Below are positions 29,074 to 36,625 of a stretch of DNA of 64,000 bases, piece after piece. Source of the stretch: a phage. The notes beneath the pieces were generated by a model. It did no database searches. It was given only the letters and a program-made list of their open reading frames with translations, and had not been told where the DNA came from. The stretch lies in the sequence record PX104378.1; one strand, written 5' to 3'. Made by a program: the position numbers and the translations under genes. Numbering within the stretch: the stretch's first letter is position 1; each line of letters opens with the position of its first letter.

Positions 29074-30131
29074 TGAAAATTAGTGTTATCAATGATGCCG
29101 TTGATAGCTTTAAAGCGGGGGTTAAAACCTCCGCTGGTTTTACCTCAAAAAATAAAGGGAAAACATTAACCGCTCAATTCCCCGCTGAACGTGCTAGCGG
29201 TAATGATGCTAGCGGTTATTATATCAACGACTTATATAATAATGGTCTGTTATTCACTGCATACGATTACACATCTCGTACTACTGGATCGCTGCGTGAT
29301 TTCAGGAAAAAGAAAAATGTTGCTAGCGGTTTTGGTGGTAGTGTTAATATCGCTGGTTTTGATTTAAATTTGGGAGGGAGAAATGCTGCATTTGACCGCG
29401 AGGCAATTGCTAATATTCTTCTTCCTCGTAGTCAATCTGACGTTGACGCTGCTAGCCATAAGTTTAATGATGTTGGTGAATCTGTTATTTCTCGCGGCGG
29501 TGGTACTTTAGGCGGTGCTCTTTCTAATATGGCATCTACTGCCGTTTTTGGTGGTATCGAAAGTATTACTGGTGGATACCTTGCCGATCACGGTGAACAG
29601 ATTTATAATACTGCAAGAAGCATGTATGCTGGTGCTGACTCACGAACTAAAAACTACGTATGGCATCTAACCCCACGTAGTATTGAAGACCTTCGTAATA
29701 TTCTGATCATATACGAAACGTTTTTAGAATTGTCTTATGGTTCTAGTGGTATTTCCAGCACCGCAAAAGAATTAAAAGCGGAAGTTGATGCGTGGTATAA
29801 AAATACACTATTGAGAAAATCCACCCCAGAGGAAGCGAAGAGAAATGATACTCTGTTTGAAGGGATCACCGATTTTCTATCAAACGTAATTACTGTATCT
29901 AACCCGACAATATGGATGATCTCTAACTTCGGCAAGCGTACATCGTTTGAAGGGCGTAGCGATGCATTTGGTCCCGCTCAGATCTCAAGTGTACGTCTGG
30001 ACAAGTCGCCGGATGGTAAGTTTAATGGCCTTGCTATTTCTCCTAACTTGCCTAGTACATTTGTTCTGGAAGTATCATTTAGAGAGATCTTGACACTTTC
30101 CCGTGGTACTATATTTGGGAGTGCGGCATAA
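29073..30131 (+). CDS. 48: Baseplate tail tube cap gp48-like
   Basis: 352 aa vs T4 364 aa; coupled to gp29 and gp54. Confidence 0.8.
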   Translation: MKISVINDAVDSFKAGVKTSAGFTSKNKGKTLTAQFPAERASGNDASGYYINDLYNNGLLFTAYDYTSRTTGSLRDFRKKKNVASGFGGSVNIAGFDLNLGGRNAAFDREAIANILLPRSQSDVDAASHKFNDVGESVISRGGGTLGGALSNMASTAVFGGIESITGGYLADHGEQIYNTARSMYAGADSRTKNYVWHLTPRSIEDLRNILIIYETFLELSYGSSGISSTAKELKAEVDAWYKNTLLRKSTPEEAKRNDTLFEGITDFLSNVITVSNPTIWMISNFGKRTSFEGRSDAFGPAQISSVRLDKSPDGKFNGLAISPNLPSTFVLEVSFREILTLSRGTIFGSAA

Positions 30132-31063
30132 TGTTTGATTTAAATGACTTTAACGAACAAGCCGCTAACCTTGACTTTCAGCGATCGAACTTATTCAGCG
30201 TGGCATTTGCCACCACTCCAAGTAATAAGACACAAGCGATCCTAGAAAGTATGGGCGGTGCGGTATATGATATTATACCAAATGCATTAAATGACTATTT
30301 CGGGATTACTCGTGGTGATTATACTGACGCATTAACAAATCTTGCTGTACAGGGTGTTAGGCGTGCTGTTGATTCATCCGGTGTCAAAAAGTATCTTTTA
30401 GGTGCAATGTCATCCCGCGTAGTTCAATCTCTTCTGGGGCAATTTGATGTTGGTACATATGCGCTTGACTGGTTCAATATGGCATATAAGACAAGCGGTC
30501 TTCTGGTGTATGCTGTTAAGGTTCCAGAAAACAGATTGAGTTATGAAATGGACCGTAACCACAATGCGCCAAACATTCGAATTACCGGACGTGATTTTGA
30601 TCCGCTTGTATTGAGCTTTAGAATGGACTCTAGCGCATCAAACTATAGAGCAATGCAGGATTGGGTTAACTCAGTAGAAGACCCTGTTACAGGGCTTCGT
30701 GCGCTTCCTGTTGACGTTGAAGCAGATATTCAGGTTAATTTACATAACCGAATGGGAGTTCCTCACACGATCATGATGTTTAATGGTTGTGTTCCTGTTG
30801 GTGTGAGTGCACCGGAATTAACCTATGAAAATAACAACGAAATCACAACATTCGATGTTACTTTCGCATATCGTTCTATGCAAACTGGTGCTGTAGGAGA
30901 GCAAGCCGCGCGAGAATGGATTGAGGATAAGGCAATAAACGCAATAACAAACACTTTCGGCAATAATTTACTTGATAGTGGGTTATCTGCTGCTGGTAAT
31001 GCTTTATCGCGTCTAAATGGCGTTGGTGGGCGTGTGGTGAATACTGTAACTAACTGGTTCTGA
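30131..31063 (+). CDS. 54: Baseplate tail tube initiator gp54-like
   Basis: 310 aa vs T4 320 aa; terminator follows. Confidence 0.8.
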   Translation: MFDLNDFNEQAANLDFQRSNLFSVAFATTPSNKTQAILESMGGAVYDIIPNALNDYFGITRGDYTDALTNLAVQGVRRAVDSSGVKKYLLGAMSSRVVQSLLGQFDVGTYALDWFNMAYKTSGLLVYAVKVPENRLSYEMDRNHNAPNIRITGRDFDPLVLSFRMDSSASNYRAMQDWVNSVEDPVTGLRALPVDVEADIQVNLHNRMGVPHTIMMFNGCVPVGVSAPELTYENNNEITTFDVTFAYRSMQTGAVGEQAAREWIEDKAINAITNTFGNNLLDSGLSAAGNALSRLNGVGGRVVNTVTNWF

Positions 31064-31068
31064 TAAGC

Positions 31069-31099
31069 GAAAGGCGGGGATTATCCCCGCCTTTTTATT
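31069..31099 (+). terminator. Intrinsic terminator after gp54 (convergent junction)
   Basis: GGCGGGGA-TTAT-CCCCGCC hairpin followed by TTTTTATTTT. Confidence 0.65.
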
Positions 31100-31580
31100 T
31101 TGCTAAATCATTGCAATATTTTAGTGCCTTAGCTTGAAATTCTGCGCTGTTAAGTTCTTCATAACGGGCATAATCACCGTTTAATGCTGCCTTTCTTGCT
31201 TCTTGCTCTATCTGCATGTCAGACATGATAATACACCGATCCCGTGCTTTCATCTTCTCAAGTTGTATAGACTCTTCTTTCTGCTTGCGCAATTCTTCTT
31301 GACGCTTCTTTTCTTCTCGTGCTTTCTCTTCACGCGCTTCTTTGATTGCATCCTTGAACATCTGCGTTTGTGGTGATAAACCAACTTTAACGCGATCCAC
31401 GTCTCGACGTTCCATTTTAGAAATAAAGCACGATTCGATCTGACCATCGCTTGCATATGCTGCTTTACATTCACGAAGCAAGAAAACCGGATCTGATTTA
31501 GCATTCATCATAGCTTCCATGTTAGCACAACCAGTAAGCATGAATGCAGCCGCAAGACCAATCAGTTTAATAATTTTCAT
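31095..31580 (-). CDS. Predicted lipoprotein, charged coiled-coil rich
   Basis: Signal peptide MKIIKLIGLAAAFMLTGC with lipobox LTGC; ATGA overlap with upstream ADP-ribosyltransferase paralog. Confidence 0.65.
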   Translation of the reverse strand: MKIIKLIGLAAAFMLTGCANMEAMMNAKSDPVFLLRECKAAYASDGQIESCFISKMERRDVDRVKVGLSPQTQMFKDAIKEAREEKAREEKKRQEELRKQKEESIQLEKMKARDRCIIMSDMQIEQEARKAALNGDYARYEELNSAEFQAKALKYCNDLAK

Positions 31581-32401
31581 TTAGTCACCTCACCGAAAAT
31601 TGTAAATTGTCTACGATTCTCATCGCCGAAGGATTCTACTACGTCGTTTACCTTTATGCAAGTCCCGCGCGGTAAAATTACTTCACATTCGCAAGGATTC
31701 CACGCAATCGACCCAACAACAAAACCTTTATGATCTTTTACATCAATTACCCATGATACATTACAAGAATGTTGCATCTTTCCGGTCATCGATTCATATC
31801 GATTCTCACAATAAAGGCTAGTGCTGTTTGAAAGCCATCCTCCAAAGATGATCGGTGTCATGCTGGTCGACACAAAGTTTTTAAAGGTAAACTCCTTATC
31901 TTCAATGATACGCTCTATTGTCTGAATGTCAAGATGTTGACCGCGATAAAGAGTACCGTTTAACTTTTCGGTTTTATCCATGACGCAATCCATCAAATCA
32001 ACAATTTCTGATATCTCGTCGGTCATGTCTTCTTCCCCTAAGAGAGCACCATTTACCCATTCGTATTGTTCAGACACATAATCACAGATTGCATTATATT
32101 CTGCTGGGGTTATGTTGTTATGTTTGTAATATTTGAATACATTATCTCCAAAATCTTCGGAGTGTACTTCATACATCACATTAATGATTTTCTTGACAAA
32201 TCCATAATCTTGTGTCTCGCGCTCAAGGAAGCGGATAATCTTCACATAATCATCAAAGTTAATCTGATCGCTGATCATCTCAGTGATCATGTAACCATTA
32301 ATACCCTCAATGCCATATGTTTCGATGTAATTATCCATACGTTCCATCATTGATTCGCGTGAATCTTCTGAAAGACGAAAATCCTGTAATTGTTTGAACA
32401 T
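31577..32401 (-). CDS. Short ADP-ribosyltransferase (Alt paralog, ModA/ModB-sized)
   Basis: 274 aa; C-terminal region paralogous to the adjacent Alt catalytic domain: LYRGQ, FKNFVSTS, IFGGW, ECEVILPRG. Confidence 0.8.
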   Translation of the reverse strand: MFKQLQDFRLSEDSRESMMERMDNYIETYGIEGINGYMITEMISDQINFDDYVKIIRFLERETQDYGFVKKIINVMYEVHSEDFGDNVFKYYKHNNITPAEYNAICDYVSEQYEWVNGALLGEEDMTDEISEIVDLMDCVMDKTEKLNGTLYRGQHLDIQTIERIIEDKEFTFKNFVSTSMTPIIFGGWLSNSTSLYCENRYESMTGKMQHSCNVSWVIDVKDHKGFVVGSIAWNPCECEVILPRGTCIKVNDVVESFGDENRRQFTIFGEVTK

Positions 32402-32420
32402 TTTAAACCTCCCATATAAC

Positions 32421-32453
32421 AGAAAACGGGGCTAGTATAAAACTAGTCCCCGT
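32421..32453 (-). terminator. Intrinsic terminator after alt
   Basis: Minus-strand hairpin AACGGGGACTAGT-loop-ACTAGCCCCGTT followed by T-run. Confidence 0.6.
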
Positions 32454-32479
32454 TTGAGTCAACCATTATTTCTTAAAAA

Positions 32480-34531
32480 TTACATTTTAAATTTATCTGG
32501 CATTGCGTCTACAGATACCAGATCAGCGATAAGCTGACGTAGAGTTGCCTTATCTGCTTTCTTACGTTCGGTTTTAGCTTCGGTAATAAAGCTGGAGAAA
32601 GACAGGTCAGAAGCAGGTTTAACAACACCTTCACGGATGAATGCATCACCGTCCGCGATCATCTCGCCAGATTCTTGTAATGCTGCCAGTTCATTTTTGT
32701 TCATAATATGTGCCTCAATGTAATAAGTTTCTTGTGAATCCGTCGATGCCGTAGCACGAGTTACCGTATCAAAGGATAACACAACACCGCGAGGAAGTAA
32801 AATCTCGCATTCTTTGTAAGCAAATGCTTTGTTACCTACTGGCAATACGGGGATGTTTTCCGCGCCAGCAATGGAGAAAGCAACATTAGCGCCACCTTCA
32901 CCGCGAGATCCAGCCATAGAATCTACACCAGCAACGGCACTAGCCACGTTTGCATTCCAGCCGCCAAAAATGTTAGGTGCAAGGGAAGTGCTCACATAGT
33001 TTTTAAAGTAAAACGCTTTTTGCTTACGTGCAGTTTCCCACATTTGCGACCGGAAGTCCATACCACGATACAGAATAGTACCAGGATCAAGTTTAACGCC
33101 ATAGTTGGAGAAGGCATTATCCAGTGCATCGCACATCTTGACCAATTCTTCTGGATCTGCGATGCCTTCAAACTCTTCCAGCTTACGGTCGGTTAGGAAG
33201 TTGTTCATATTGATGTATGCTGCATCGGCATATTCGCTCAACACAAAACCTTCCGCGCCCGGCAGATCAAGATCAATATCTGCCATCATTTCACCCATGT
33301 TGCTAGCAATTGCTTCAAACATACCGGAAGCAACATTACGTAGGGCATCGGTTTTAATCTGTGTGATGTGACTACGCAGCATTTCAGCTTTTACATCTGC
33401 TGGCATAGACTGGTCTACTCGATCCATTGCCAGGGCGGTGATCTTGTTTTCGAATACTTCCTCGCTCATGATTTCTTTTAAGCGTTTGATTGATGCTGCG
33501 ATAACTTCCGCAGACAACGGATCATATTGATCCTGAACTTTTACCAGTTCGCTTACTGCATATTTTGCATCGGCTTCGCTTTCAAAAATAGTACGCATGA
33601 AACCATAGCGAGTGATAATATCACTTGTCCAGTCATTCAGAGAACGAGCGGTTGAACGTTCTAAGGCTTGACGATCAATCAGAGTATTAAACTGTTTCTT
33701 AGGTTCGGCTTCGGTGATATCTTCTTCTGGTTTAAGATTAATTTTTTCTGGATGATTCACGTAGTCGCTGTTATATGTCGCTTGAGTTTTCAGCATTTCT
33801 TCTTTAGTCAAACGAGATTTAGCCGCTACGCGTTGTTCCGCTTCCGCGTTTCGTTCTTCTTCTGACACAAGACTAGCCGCATACGCCTCATCTTTAGTCA
33901 GAGATTCACCAGTAGCCTTAGATACCCAGCGATCACCTAAATCACTTTCTACTTTAGTGAACAAGGATTCATCAAGTTTAATCCCTTTAATCTTATCAAT
34001 CGCCATCCCGCGACGCTTGACAACAACTAAAGCGATCTTTTTGCTGGTCATTACTTCCTGCTGGAATACTTCAAACTTCGGTGTACGACGCACCAAACGC
34101 TCTATAACGCGCTTAACCAGTTCGGTCTTACCTTTCATGCGGGATACGTTAAAACGGAACATAACAGCGTCTAATTGCGCTTTACGGGCTGTTTCCATAA
34201 CCACATCAAAAGCACTTGCCATAACTGCAATCGGGTTATCGCCTAGACCATTTTTAAGCTGTACAATACGACCGCTTTTGTTCATTTCGCACAGTACAAC
34301 ATGTGCGGTCTTGTCACCCATACGAATGATTTTAGGTGTTTTGTTGGTGAAGTTACAAAGACGGACAATCACATCTTTATCGCGTGTCTGTACTGCAAAA
34401 AGCTGTTTAGGATTCTGCTTAGGCTTTAAGCACTGTACCGGAGCAATACTGCCAAAGTTTTCTTCCTCTTCCGTCAACAGCCATTTCTCGAAAGATTCAA
34501 TCATTAGATCGTCGATTTCTAAGTTAAACAT
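32480..34531 (-). CDS. alt: ADP-ribosyltransferase Alt
   Basis: 683 aa vs T4 Alt 682 aa; position after gp54; R-S-E motifs YRGM, YVSTS, ECEILLPRG. Confidence 0.88.
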   Translation of the reverse strand: MFNLEIDDLMIESFEKWLLTEEEENFGSIAPVQCLKPKQNPKQLFAVQTRDKDVIVRLCNFTNKTPKIIRMGDKTAHVVLCEMNKSGRIVQLKNGLGDNPIAVMASAFDVVMETARKAQLDAVMFRFNVSRMKGKTELVKRVIERLVRRTPKFEVFQQEVMTSKKIALVVVKRRGMAIDKIKGIKLDESLFTKVESDLGDRWVSKATGESLTKDEAYAASLVSEEERNAEAEQRVAAKSRLTKEEMLKTQATYNSDYVNHPEKINLKPEEDITEAEPKKQFNTLIDRQALERSTARSLNDWTSDIITRYGFMRTIFESEADAKYAVSELVKVQDQYDPLSAEVIAASIKRLKEIMSEEVFENKITALAMDRVDQSMPADVKAEMLRSHITQIKTDALRNVASGMFEAIASNMGEMMADIDLDLPGAEGFVLSEYADAAYINMNNFLTDRKLEEFEGIADPEELVKMCDALDNAFSNYGVKLDPGTILYRGMDFRSQMWETARKQKAFYFKNYVSTSLAPNIFGGWNANVASAVAGVDSMAGSRGEGGANVAFSIAGAENIPVLPVGNKAFAYKECEILLPRGVVLSFDTVTRATASTDSQETYYIEAHIMNKNELAALQESGEMIADGDAFIREGVVKPASDLSFSSFITEAKTERKKADKATLRQLIADLVSVDAMPDKFKM

Positions 34532-34571
34532 TTTATATCCTCTAGTTGATAACCTATAAACCTATATTTAT

Positions 34572-34593
34572 GAAAAAGGGGCTTTACGCCCCT
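34572..34593 (-). terminator. Intrinsic terminator after 34598..34810
   Basis: Minus-strand hairpin AGGGGCG-TAAA-GCCCCT followed by TTTTT. Confidence 0.55.
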
Positions 34594-34597
34594 TTTA

Positions 34598-34810
34598 TTA
34601 TAATGCACCATCAAGCAATTGCTCTAAGGTGTATCCTGAATAGTCTTTTTCAATCAGGATATATTTTCCTACTCGTTTAATCCAGCCACGCATTTCAACG
34701 TATTCTGCGTAGTTGATGGTACGAGTTGTTCCATCTTCCAGTAATGCAGTACCGATTTCGTTGATGCGGTCATAAGTTACGTCGGTAATGATGATTTCGA
34801 TGTTAGCCAT
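34598..34810 (-). CDS. Small early protein
   Basis: 70 aa; ATG with SD directly downstream of promoter cassette; terminator downstream. Confidence 0.6.
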   Translation of the reverse strand: MANIEIIITDVTYDRINEIGTALLEDGTTRTINYAEYVEMRGWIKRVGKYILIEKDYSGYTLEQLLDGAL

Positions 34811-34846
34811 TTGATACTCCTTAGTAGTTCGTTTCGGTATGTGTGC

Positions 34847-34875
34847 ATTATAGGGGATCGATGATCCCCTGTCAA
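34847..34875 (-). promoter_or_regulatory. Early promoter cassette P1 (TTGACA-N17-TATAAT, GC palindrome in spacer)
   Basis: Minus strand TTGACAggggatcatcgatccccTATAAT then conserved leader gcacacataccgaaacgaa; drives 34598..34810. Confidence 0.6.
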
Positions 34876-34882
34876 CAACTTT

Positions 34883-35401
34883 TTAGTTATTTTTTAATTG
34901 CTCATCTTGCAATAAAGCAATCACATGCTGGCGATGTTCTTCCGATTGAGGCACACCGAAAAAGTTTGTTTTGTAGAAATACTCTAATCGGTCTTCTCGT
35001 GTGCTCTCTTCCATCATGATCGCGGGTAGTCCGAGATTTCGGAAACGTCGCTTTTCTGCTGGCGTAAAATCGCTGTAATACAGCATAGAATCATCATTAC
35101 CAGCAATGCTAAACTCATCCTTCATGAAGGAGAATATTGCGTTTAAACGCTGTTTACCGTCCACTATTTCGATTTCATAGCGAGAGCCATCATCAATCTT
35201 AGCCATTGCGATAGCACCAACCGGAAAATCATTAATCAGGTTTTCGATAAACATACGTTTGTTTTCGGTGTCCCATACCAAAGGACGCTGATAATCTGGG
35301 TTCATGTTGATATAGCCATCTTCTAACCACGCCTCATAAACAGAGATGACAAAGTTTTTAGTATTGGTATAGTAACGGCGTTTAGGAGTTAAACGGTTCA
35401 T
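34883..35401 (-). CDS. DUF262/ParB-like (GmrSD N-terminal domain-like) protein
   Basis: 172 aa; motifs PDYQRPLVWD and VDGKQRLNA (DGQQR-type); ATGA overlap with upstream ORF. Confidence 0.7.
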   Translation of the reverse strand: MNRLTPKRRYYTNTKNFVISVYEAWLEDGYINMNPDYQRPLVWDTENKRMFIENLINDFPVGAIAMAKIDDGSRYEIEIVDGKQRLNAIFSFMKDEFSIAGNDDSMLYYSDFTPAEKRRFRNLGLPAIMMEESTREDRLEYFYKTNFFGVPQSEEHRQHVIALLQDEQLKNN

Positions 35402-35577
35402 AGTGTGCTTACCTTTTCAATATATGCGTCCGCATACTGGCGAATGCTCATTTCTTCTCGTACTGCTGCTACAAATTCTTTCATGGATTCAAACCATTTG
35501 TAGGTGTCGCGATACATGACCAACTCTTCCCAAGTAAGATCGCAAATCTCTTTACCGTGTAGTTGTGGTGTTATCAT
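35398..35577 (-). CDS. Small hypothetical protein (59 aa), not in ORF table
   Basis: ATG overlaps stop of zinc-ribbon gene (ATGA) and its stop overlaps ATG of DUF262 gene; translation MITPQLHGKEICDLTWEELVMYRDTYKWFESMKEFVAAVREEMSIRQYADAYIEKVSTL. Confidence 0.5.
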   Translation of the reverse strand: MITPQLHGKEICDLTWEELVMYRDTYKWFESMKEFVAAVREEMSIRQYADAYIEKVSTL

Positions 35578-35912
35578 AATATAGTTCTCCTGAATGGATC
35601 ATCACGTAAATCAATATCTTTTAAGAACTCATCCCATGAATAGCGGATATTGTTCTTAATTCTCCAGATAAGCGCAGGGATTGAACGCTCTCCCATCTGG
35701 AAGTATGGATCGTATGATCCGTATGCCCAATATGCTACTACAATTCCACAATCAGCGCAATAGTATTCTATTTCACTTGCTGGCGACAAAAGTCCATCAA
35801 TATGATCAGTGATCTTGCTTTCGATGTTATGGCTATGACAATCAGGGCAACGGATGCAATGACCTTGTTTATCGTAATTTGACGTTAGCGAATACTTAAA
35901 CAATCTCATCAT
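35574..35912 (-). CDS. Zinc-ribbon protein
   Basis: 112 aa; CIRCPDCHSH ... YYCADCG; ATGA overlap with upstream methyltransferase-like gene. Confidence 0.65.
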   Translation of the reverse strand: MMRLFKYSLTSNYDKQGHCIRCPDCHSHNIESKITDHIDGLLSPASEIEYYCADCGIVVAYWAYGSYDPYFQMGERSIPALIWRIKNNIRYSWDEFLKDIDLRDDPFRRTIL

Positions 35913-36625
35913 AGATCCTTATTGGCTTCAAATACTGCCTTTGCGAATCCTCGCGGGGTAAGTGACCTGATAGTCTTTGTTCTGGTTCCTTTCCCGCCTA
36001 GCTTAGAATGCTGTTTACTGTACCCTTTCTCAATCGGCAACGGTTTCTTTTCTGGCATTATAAAGCCTTGTCCGGTCCATAAGCAAGTCTTTTTCGGGTA
36101 CATATCACGGGCGGCAATATACTCAGGAAACGTAGGATGTATATCATCTTCCGGCAAATAACCGCCATATTCCCACGGGTGGAACATGTAATCAGGCTTA
36201 CGCCACATGCTAGAGATAACGCTTACAGGATTCTCTATCATGTAGGGAACTCCTAGCCATTCACCCAAATAAGCGGTTATTTTAGCTGCCCGTACATCAT
36301 GAACTTGAATTAATGGTCCTTGCTCTCGTTTCTTTCGTTCAAAGTGTGCAGCGCCACTAACAGCTAAATTGGTACACGGTGGGAATGCAAAGATAATATC
36401 CGGTTTCCCCCATTCAAGGTCCATTGCTCTTTCCAGCCAATTCAAATCAATCCATGTGTTTACATAGGTAATGTTTGGATGTTCAAATCGGGTATTATAT
36501 TTTTTGTATGTACCGTGGTCGCCGTCGTCAGCATTGAAGCAGATCACCTTATGACCTGCTTTAGCCCATTCTAGCCCCATTATCCCCGATCCGTCAAAGT
36601 TGCAGAATATTAATTTTTGTTTCAT
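35909..36625 (-). CDS. C5-pyrimidine methyltransferase-fold protein (Dcm-like catalytic core, no obvious target-recognition domain)
   Basis: 238 aa; motif I-like FDGSGIMG, motif IV-like FPPCTNLAVSG (Pro-Cys), ENV-like IENPV. Confidence 0.6.
   Translation of the reverse strand: MKQKLIFCNFDGSGIMGLEWAKAGHKVICFNADDGDHGTYKKYNTRFEHPNITYVNTWIDLNWLERAMDLEWGKPDIIFAFPPCTNLAVSGAAHFERKKREQGPLIQVHDVRAAKITAYLGEWLGVPYMIENPVSVISSMWRKPDYMFHPWEYGGYLPEDDIHPTFPEYIAARDMYPKKTCLWTGQGFIMPEKKPLPIEKGYSKQHSKLGGKGTRTKTIRSLTPRGFAKAVFEANKDL

Follow-up and report, generated by a model that had tools for sequence, protein, structure and literature searches.

Genes at the locus

We analysed a stretch of phage DNA of 64,000 nucleotides (sequence record PX104378.1, hereafter the window) with a focus on two adjacent minus-strand genes, which encode an ADP-ribosyltransferase (ART) of 274 amino acids (aa) and a lipoprotein of 161 aa. 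Both follow alt, the gene of the long ADP-ribosyltransferase Alt, and the stop codon of the ART gene and the start codon of the lipoprotein gene share the tetranucleotide ATGA. A 3.8-kb query spanning the locus retrieved 59 phage records at 95–100% identity, all of which (59/59) belong to the RB49/Phi1/JSE/GEC-3S/JK32 group. By sequence, the window is assigned to Krischvirus, the T4-type coliphages of this group. On the plus strand, the set of alt, ART, and lipoprotein genes is faced by the convergent late baseplate genes 29, 48, and 54. The hairpin terminator between the two sets is annotated on both strands in the GEC-3S record and is also annotated in the G37-3 record. The features of the locus are listed in Table 1.

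The open reading frames (ORFs), their ATGA overlap, and the sequence motifs described in a first-pass annotation of the window all held when the sequence was read again. Judged from their sequences, both ORFs are real genes and not chance reading frames, because the upstream one matches PF03496 and resembles Alt, and because they show purifying selection and conservation in divergent relatives. The pair itself had been recorded before. GenBank already labels the short gene as 'ADP-ribosyltransferase' and, in phage W115, the next gene as 'putative lipoprotein', and many Krischvirus records have annotations for the two genes. In the work of Nolan et al. 2006, RB49ORF183c, 44RRORF188c, and T4 alt.-1/alt.-2 appear as paralogous alt duplications (PMC1524935). 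A literature search for a described function of either gene turned up only this remark on paralogy (PMC1524935).

Table 1. Genes and predicted signals at the ART-lipoprotein locus of the window.
Feature	Position	Strand	Basis
alt, full-length, 683 aa	32480-34531	-	ORF; PF03496 E = 2.3e-9; phrog_802 E = 8.5e-180
Short Alt-derived ART, 274 aa (RB49ORF183c family, phrog_15144)	31577-32401	-	ORF, profile, predicted fold
Putative lipoprotein, 161 aa (phrog_16112, unknown function)	31095-31580	-	ORF and lipobox
Gene 54 (baseplate tail tube initiator), late, convergent	30131-31063	+	Neighbour of the lipoprotein gene
Predicted bidirectional hairpin terminator, common to the ART-lipoprotein operon and gene 54	31069-31095	both	12-pair stem, 7 GC pairs, T tail
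Predicted intrinsic terminator of alt, hairpin then UUUUCUG	32424-32455	-	Folding free energy (dG) -18.9 kcal/mol, z = -4.68
Predicted sigma-70 (T4 early-type) promoter of the ART-lipoprotein dicistron, TTGACT-17-TATACT	32434-32462	-	10/12 consensus positions
Promoter-like site within the ART ORF, TTGACA-16-TATCAT	31905-31932	-	11/12 consensus positions; ~325 nt upstream of the lipoprotein start
Shine-Dalgarno of the lipoprotein gene, GAGGTG, made of the last ART codons (..G-E-V..)	31586-31591	-	5 nt before ATG

Linkage and independent variation of the two genes

A gene of the lipoprotein family directly follows the ART gene in 59/59 isolates (55 detected by tblastn and 4 by alignment). The lipoprotein gene is also next in all metagenomic relatives whose sequence past the ART gene is present, with ART identities of 61, 44, 41, 40, and 26%. 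The slot is constant in every relative found, with alt, ART, lipoprotein, and then convergent gene 54, and every member of the lipoprotein family with a readable context lies after a short ART. The first-pass annotation had named as evidence against a functional pair the finding that the lipoprotein gene is never linked to the enzyme in related phages; linkage proved to be strict in all genomes and contigs examined, so that this check came out in favour of the annotation. It may represent a single ancestral arrangement that was inherited, because all cases sit in one syntenic slot. From the arrangement of the genes, we attribute the strict linkage to inheritance of an operon that closes what would be an early transcription unit, and not to functional dependence.

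The two genes nevertheless vary independently. Phage JK32 has an ART that is 100% identical to that of the window next to a lipoprotein with only 30% identity, and the ARTs of G37-3, L013, and L015 are 96–98% identical beside lipoproteins with 32% identity. In DNA alignments with G37-3, PHB13, and E26, both flanks show 96–100% identity, which drops to ~50% exactly over 31100-31540. By sequence comparison, the lipoprotein gene is a swappable cassette with its boundaries at the ORF edges. In the relative L010, the synonymous divergence (dS) is 0.89 for the lipoprotein gene and 0.83 for gene 54, in contrast to 0.20 for ART and alt, which points to a recombination breakpoint at the junction of the ART and lipoprotein genes. 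Gene 54 is mosaic in JK32 (L003) and AV108 (L006) at its 3′ end and in part of its 5′ half, where the DNA identity is 62–88%. These mosaic parts adjoin the swapped lipoprotein cassette, whereas G37-3, PHB13, and E26 differ in the lipoprotein ORF only.

Natural disruptions of the lipoprotein gene were also found. A frameshifting deletion of 32 bp is present in L032 (1626-2079, on a 165-kb contig) and in L033 (864-1317), which comes from a different sample. It truncates the lipoprotein at 96 aa and leaves the ART intact and 99% identical. Short AAAGAAG repeats within the E/K/R-rich spacer flank the deletion. A third locus (L034, 2501-3000) carries a 1-bp insertion in the lipoprotein gene, again with an intact ART. 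Because these disruptions coexist with intact ARTs, the lipoprotein appears, as judged from the sequences, to be dispensable in wild phages.

Identity and predicted fold of the short ART

The 274-aa protein matches PF03496 (ADPrib_exo_Tox) with 59 bits, compared with a curated cut-off of 23.4 (E = 5e-16), and its residues 82–266 align with positions 2–187 of the 196 positions of the profile. On the Alt-like profile phrog_802, it covers positions 333–602 of 674. In a BLASTP comparison with the adjoining Alt, 109 aa of the catalytic core are 37% identical (E = 1e-16). These three results bear out the earlier claim that the protein is an Alt-derived paralog; this reading is right, and it was already published in 2006. 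The Alt signature motifs reported for it are all present, namely LYRGQ (151–155), FKNFVSTS (173–180), IFGGW (185–189), and ECEVILPRG (238–246). They contain the catalytic residues R153, S178-T179-S180, and E238-x-E240 (E238-C-E240), as well as the aromatic Y152 preceding R153. Y152, R153, G154, S178, T179, S180, E238, and E240 are unchanged in 9 aligned sequences, down to 25% identity.

Structure prediction, which the first-pass annotation had proposed as a check, gave an ART fold. The AlphaFold2 model (predicted local distance difference test, pLDDT, 82.7; predicted template modelling score, pTM, 0.82) consists of a helical N-terminal subdomain (residues 1–143) and a beta core (146–272), and thus has the split beta-sandwich core and N-terminal helical subdomain that define the ART fold. 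A Foldseek search with this model retrieved Vis, C3bot2, Certhrax, CDTa, iota Ia, and Tre1 with a probability of 1.00 (top hits E 5e-11 to 1e-8), in agreement with a fold of the Vis/C3/iota toxin type. Residues 185–208 near the binding site of nicotinamide adenine dinucleotide (NAD) have low model confidence, but the sequence of this loop is strongly kept (PIIFGGWxxNSTSLYCENRY). The ratio of nonsynonymous to synonymous substitution rates (dN/dS) of 0.05–0.07 indicates purifying selection, and the ORF is complete in 59/59 isolates and in all metagenomic relatives. The sequence contains no signal peptide.

Because of the PF03496 match, the invariant catalytic residues, the modelled fold, and the low dN/dS, the short ART is almost certainly an active mono-ADP-ribosyltransferase of the R-S-ExE type, as predicted from its sequence and model. 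Its acceptor residue is probably arginine, as suggested by the E-x-E motif and by analogy with Alt, Mod, and the C2 and iota toxins.

Comparison with Alt, Mod, and other alt copies

The short ART shares with the T4 Alt/VIP2 clade (PF03496, phrog_802) the aromatic-R, S-T-S, and E-x-E elements and a predicted C3/Vis/iota-like fold, and it occupies the same genomic neighbourhood as T4 Alt. In contrast to Alt, it has 274 instead of 683 aa. The long N-terminal region of Alt is missing, as had been claimed; ~330 residues are absent in the phrog_802 alignment, and PF26846, which covers this region, matches the 683-aa Alt and not the 274-aa ART (precomputed matches). The Alt homolog of L010, which is 99% identical, has precomputed matches to both PF26846 (Tevenvirinae_ADPRT) and PF03496. 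The C-terminal tail of Alt, ~75 residues ending in ..KFKM, is likewise absent from the aligned short ARTs, which are 264–288 aa long. The short ART also differs from Alt in the distinctive conserved loop GGWxxNSTSLYCENRY and in its own sigma-70 promoter beyond the alt terminator, and early synthesis without packaging is probable, as far as its sequence indicates. In two other Alt-like proteins of intermediate length, P0046 (415 aa, on a 166-kb contig) and P0047 (316 aa), the N-terminal domain is mostly gone and the tail is retained (..KFKM / ..KFII). They could help to locate the part of Alt that is required for head packaging.

The description of the short ART as being of Mod size stands only as an approximation and is not exact (274 aa vs 200 and 207 aa). 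BLASTP detected no sequence similarity to T4 ModA (E = 0.40) or ModB (E = 1.2), which rules out membership in the Mod family. The resemblance to ModA and ModB is one of outline, namely a small and presumably non-packaged enzyme with an early-type promoter and probable host targets in the cytoplasm. RB49 has a single modB-like gene (RB49p014, 167 aa; L029, 8917-9420), which lies between srd and gene 56, the place of both modA and modB in T4. The ARTs of these phages are therefore three in number, namely Alt, its short paralog, and one Mod.

Tandem alt copies are frequent in T4-like phages, with two full-length copies in T2 and ime09 and three in PSD9 and PspYZU05. The short ART has in common with these paralogs (T2 and ime09 'alt.-2', PSD9 ORF6-8, PspYZU05 gp156-158, 44RRORF187c/188c, and T4 alt.-1/alt.-2) an origin by local alt duplication and the slot between alt and gene 54. 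Whereas most of them are full-length (630–700 aa), the Krischvirus copy is reduced to the enzyme domain and has gained a promoter of its own and, downstream, a gene for a lipoprotein. We found no lipoprotein beside the tandem alt copies of T2, PSD9, and PspYZU05; in T2, the gene following them is alt.-3, whose 96-aa product has neither a signal peptide nor a lipobox.

Sequence and predicted structure of the lipoprotein

The N-terminus of the 161-aa protein, MKIIKLIGLAAAFMLTGC, carries a positively charged n-region and a hydrophobic core in front of the lipobox L-T-G-C. Divided as MKIIK-LIGLAAAFM-LTGC (MKIIKLIGLAAAFM-LTGC), it is a textbook lipoprotein signal, with a signal peptide of residues 1–17 and a lipobox (L15-T-G-C18, at 31527-31538) that agrees with the pattern [LVI][ASTVI][GAS]C. 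No allele or lineage departs from G17 and C18. At +2, the window has Ala, and the alleles as a whole have Ala or Ser, never Asp. According to the Lol sorting rule of E. coli, lipoproteins without Asp at +2 go to the outer membrane. Because of its Ala or Ser at this position, the lipoprotein is predicted to be sorted to the outer membrane. The four cysteines of the mature protein (C38, C51, C116, and C156) are invariant in all alleles and would fit periplasmic disulfides.

The AlphaFold2 model (pLDDT 87) is all-helical, with a 62-residue helix (72–133) of which 61% of the residues are E/K/R/D/Q. This helix and the lipobox agree with the earlier description of a lipoprotein (lipobox LTGC) rich in charged coiled coil. 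In-frame length changes between alleles map to the E/K/R-rich spacer helix. Pairwise dN/dS values of 0.12–0.35 indicate purifying selection, and we rejected positive selection on this basis; the divergence of the alleles is attributed to recombination with distant alleles (dS up to 0.9). Sequence and structure searches (Pfam, NCBIfam, PHROGs, PDB, and BFVD) gave no informative relative outside the own family of the lipoprotein, and an exhaustive profile search of 1.84 billion protein clusters placed the family in 10 clusters and nowhere else. Most alleles end in K, and we considered an Lpp-like tether through a C-terminal lysine. We rejected this idea, as the last residue is N in several alleles (..ILN, ..KLN) and the protein does not resemble Lpp.

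Transcription and translation signals

The hairpin of the alt terminator was not matched in folding by any of the shuffled sequences (0/200); a simple terminator scan had missed it because of a one-base bulge in the stem. The promoter of the ART-lipoprotein dicistron is interleaved with this terminator, its -35 element lying upstream of the stem and its -10 element in the loop and the 3′ arm. The GEC-3S record annotates the same promoter, and the ART start codon is preceded by the Shine-Dalgarno sequence GGGAGG. The uncultured relatives L022 (432-512), L016 (5920-6000), and L021 (1761-1841), whose ARTs are 40–61% identical, have TTGACA-17-TATACT at the same place and have kept the terminator hairpin with two compensatory stem pairs.

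Upstream of alt (34529-34620, minus strand), a GC-rich hairpin terminator (AAAAGGGGCGTAAAGCCCCTTTTT) precedes the sequence CATAAATA, a box with one mismatch from the T4 late-promoter box. Hairpin terminators thus bracket alt on both sides. A TATAAATA box was found on neither strand of 30900-34900. The flanking terminators and the CATAAATA box suggest that alt is an insulated late transcription unit. Late expression would be consistent with the behaviour of T4 Alt, which is packaged in the head. The ART and lipoprotein genes, in turn, presumably form an early sigma-70 operon.

The promoter-like site within the ART ORF is one of a series of near-consensus sigma-70 motifs, with counterparts in the ART genes of L010, L022, L021, L025, and L027. 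Internal sites matching 11–12 of 12 positions occur on the sense strand in 5/7 lineages, at three different positions, whereas the best antisense site always matches 9. Codon shuffling gave P values of 0.0095, 0.0105, 0, 0.0435, and 0.0005 for these sites. The lipoprotein gene probably has its own candidate promoter inside the ART ORF, which would be independently maintained.

The ART-lipoprotein junction of the window reads GGTGAGGTGACTAAATGA. All loci compared (11/11) have GAGGTG, GAGGTT, or GGAGAT at the same place of the junction, with a gene spacing of -8 to +11 nt. Because the Shine-Dalgarno sequence is embedded in the last ART codons, translational coupling of the two genes is possible, but it would not be obligatory.

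Interpretation of the locus

We propose with moderate confidence that the locus contains two separate early accessory genes in one small operon, and not a functional pair. The first gene would be a truncated tandem duplicate of alt that kept the ART domain of Alt but neither its N-terminal domain nor its C-terminal tail. The short ART would be transcribed right after infection from a sigma-70 promoter of its own, stay in the cytoplasm, and mono-ADP-ribosylate host proteins with NAD+ as the donor and arginine as the probable acceptor, as a Mod-like, newly made complement to the late-made Alt, which in T4 is packaged in the head. The lipoprotein would be exported by the Sec pathway, lipidated at Cys18, and delivered to the periplasmic side of the outer membrane. 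There, it would present a helical protein with stabilising disulfides on an E/K/R-rich stalk in the periplasm and possibly take part in superinfection exclusion or envelope protection.

Among the known phage proteins for superinfection exclusion or envelope protection are T5 Llp, Cor, T4 Sp, and T4 Imm. We propose, with moderate-to-low confidence, that the lipoprotein is a protein of this kind; such a role is suggested by its early sigma-70-type promoter, its predicted export to the envelope, and the swaps of divergent alleles among near-identical phages. Features that it shares with T5 Llp and Cor (phi80/N15) are a small size, predicted export as a lipoprotein of a virulent phage, a promoter of the sigma-70 type, predicted outer-membrane sorting, and allelic diversity among close relatives. 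Its larger size, all-helical model, and long charged stalk set it apart from Llp and Cor, and it has no homology to them or to T4 Sp and Imm. In a comparison with the Cor profile phrog_1119 (E = 0.0039), no single stretch passed the threshold, and the best stretch (residues 1–55) included the signal peptide. A cross-tabulation of lipoprotein alleles with the gp38 adhesin showed no association, as both gp38 types (~97% and ~82% identical to RB49 gp38) occur with each of the alleles A (that of the window), B (that of JK32), and C (that of G37-3). This result, which concerns gp38 only, weakens an Llp-like model in which the lipoprotein masks the phage's own receptor.

Several points weigh against two separate accessory genes with these roles. 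The pair is never separated in the 59/59 records or in the metagenomic relatives, whose ART identities go as low as 26%, and no member of the lipoprotein family has turned up elsewhere; this persistence could reflect functional dependence. The early timing of both genes is read from promoter motifs only. The lipoprotein alleles are independent of the gp38 type, and dN/dS values below 1 give no direct sign of an arms race. The exclusion or protection function, for its part, is reached by analogy, at the moderate-to-low confidence given above.

The first-pass annotation had proposed an enzyme-partner or toxin-immunity pair. That the ART has in the lipoprotein its partner, regulator, or immunity factor, or that both are mutually needed on one pathway, appears to us quite improbable. 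Such a dependence would account for the strict adjacency and tight overlap in every genome and contig, and for the confinement of the lipoprotein family to the downstream side of short ARTs, and the Shine-Dalgarno sequence within the ART codons would permit translational coupling. The predicted compartments differ, as the lipobox of the lipoprotein is invariant, whereas the ART sequence contains no signal peptide. NAD+, which the ART requires, is cytoplasmic. The two proteins do not co-vary, as identical ARTs stand beside lipoproteins of ~30% identity with sharp cassette edges, and natural knock-outs of the lipoprotein retain an intact ART. The probable internal promoters would uncouple transcription of the lipoprotein gene from that of the ART gene, and the recombination history of the lipoprotein gene in L010 is that of gene 54 and not that of the ART gene. 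Moreover, a virulent phage has no need for immunity to an enzyme directed at its host, and T4 Alt, ModA, and ModB are not known to have an immunity partner. The closest parallels are the Tre1-Tri1 pair of Serratia (PDB 6dre) and the ART-ARH pair of Listeria (PDB 8za7), which have a similar ART fold (Foldseek E ~2e-8) and a gene adjoining downstream of the ART gene; phmmer with the short ART also gave a weak match to 6dre_B. Known ART immunity proteins are cytoplasmic binders or ADP-ribosylhydrolases (ARHs) that co-evolve with the toxin. In contrast, the Krischvirus neighbour is predicted to be exported, has no ARH or macro domain, does not co-vary, and appears dispensable. More generally, we regard a real functional module of ART and lipoprotein as unlikely. 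We keep one form of it in mind because of the linkage down to 26% ART identity and the absence of the lipoprotein family elsewhere, although we give it little credence: a two-compartment dicistron in which a cytoplasmic ART and a periplasmic lipoprotein act at two ends of one host process, which could be, for example, envelope biogenesis, trans-envelope defence, or an entry pathway. The lipoprotein would then, as a further and equally doubtful proposal, be a new stalk-and-head family with interchangeable alleles that decide which phages or host variants are excluded.

The other alternatives concern the single proteins. The short ART might be packaged in the virion and injected with the DNA as a second internal ART, like Alt, from which it derives and which it adjoins. 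Phage ARTs are often delivered from the head (PMC9503650), and other T4-like phages have two or three full-length alt copies, presumably all packaged. Against such a role, which we consider improbable, the short ART lacks the Alt N-terminal domain (PF26846 matches the 683-aa protein only) and the ..KFKM tail, which even the 316–415-aa proteins P0046 and P0047 retain. It also has a conserved sigma-70 promoter, is insulated from alt by a terminator, and has no TATAAATA box in 30900-34900. It is very improbable that the short ART is a catalytically dead remnant (a decoy or pseudo-enzyme) of an alt duplication that is in the course of being lost, like the T4 alt.-1/alt.-2 fragments. Its origin as a truncated duplicate, the low model confidence of residues 185–208 beside the NAD site, and the listing of T4 alt.-1/alt.-2 as short alt paralogs (PMC1524935) would fit such a remnant. 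However, all catalytic residues are invariant down to 25% identity, the low-confidence loop itself is highly conserved, and the strong purifying selection on a full-length ORF extends through the 59/59 isolates and all metagenomic relatives. For the lipoprotein, a role in lysis as an outer-membrane spanin subunit or unimolecular spanin is hardly credible. An outer-membrane-type lipoprotein with coiled-coil-like periplasmic helices and conserved cysteines recalls the spanin families Rz/Rz1 and T1 gp11, which show these features. However, there is no adjacent or embedded inner-membrane partner, as the upstream gene encodes a soluble ART and the downstream one is the convergent gene 54, and the protein has a hydrophilic C-terminus (..KYCNDLAK) instead of a C-terminal transmembrane segment. 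The promoters are of the sigma-70 early type, with no late promoter, no spanin of PHROG or Pfam is matched, and the lipoprotein is apparently dispensable in wild phages. Two separate accessory genes are the preferred reading; the proposed pairing of a toxin or enzyme with its immunity factor or partner is unlikely in view of the different predicted compartments, the absence of co-variation, and the apparent dispensability of the lipoprotein.

Neighbouring genes

Three further minus-strand ORFs upstream of alt were noted. The product of 34883-35401 (172 aa), in the phage early region, consists of a GmrSD_N/DUF262 domain only (PF03235, E = 4e-20). Type IV restriction enzymes that target modified DNA have this domain at their N-terminus. 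The 238-aa product of 35909-36625 contains a FPPCTNLAVSGA motif that recalls motif IV of cytosine-5 DNA methyltransferases, and it has no Pfam match. The next ORF (35574-35912, 112 aa) gives a weak zinc-ribbon match (PF08271, E = 1e-4), which is below the cut-off.

Implications

The analysis adds several features to what is annotated for these phages. The ART-lipoprotein dicistron is deeply conserved in the same slot across all relatives found, its orphan lipoprotein gene undergoes cassette-like allele replacement, and natural lipoprotein knock-outs occur beside an intact ART. The signals predicted from the sequence include a promoter of the dicistron that is nested in the alt terminator and probable internal promoters in the ART gene.

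The short ART is one more enzyme of the Alt family, and one that had already been noticed. To our knowledge, the RB49 group lacks the MotA-dependent middle-mode transcription of T4; because of this and of its different set of ARTs, the targets of the short ART could be informative. The toxin-immunity reading can be set aside. The lipoprotein poses the more open question of the two, as an orphan, early-type, exported protein that is cassette-swapped among near-identical coliphages that are therapeutic candidates. If it does act in superinfection exclusion or envelope protection, the lipoprotein allele would be relevant to the design of phage cocktails and to competition among Krischvirus phages.

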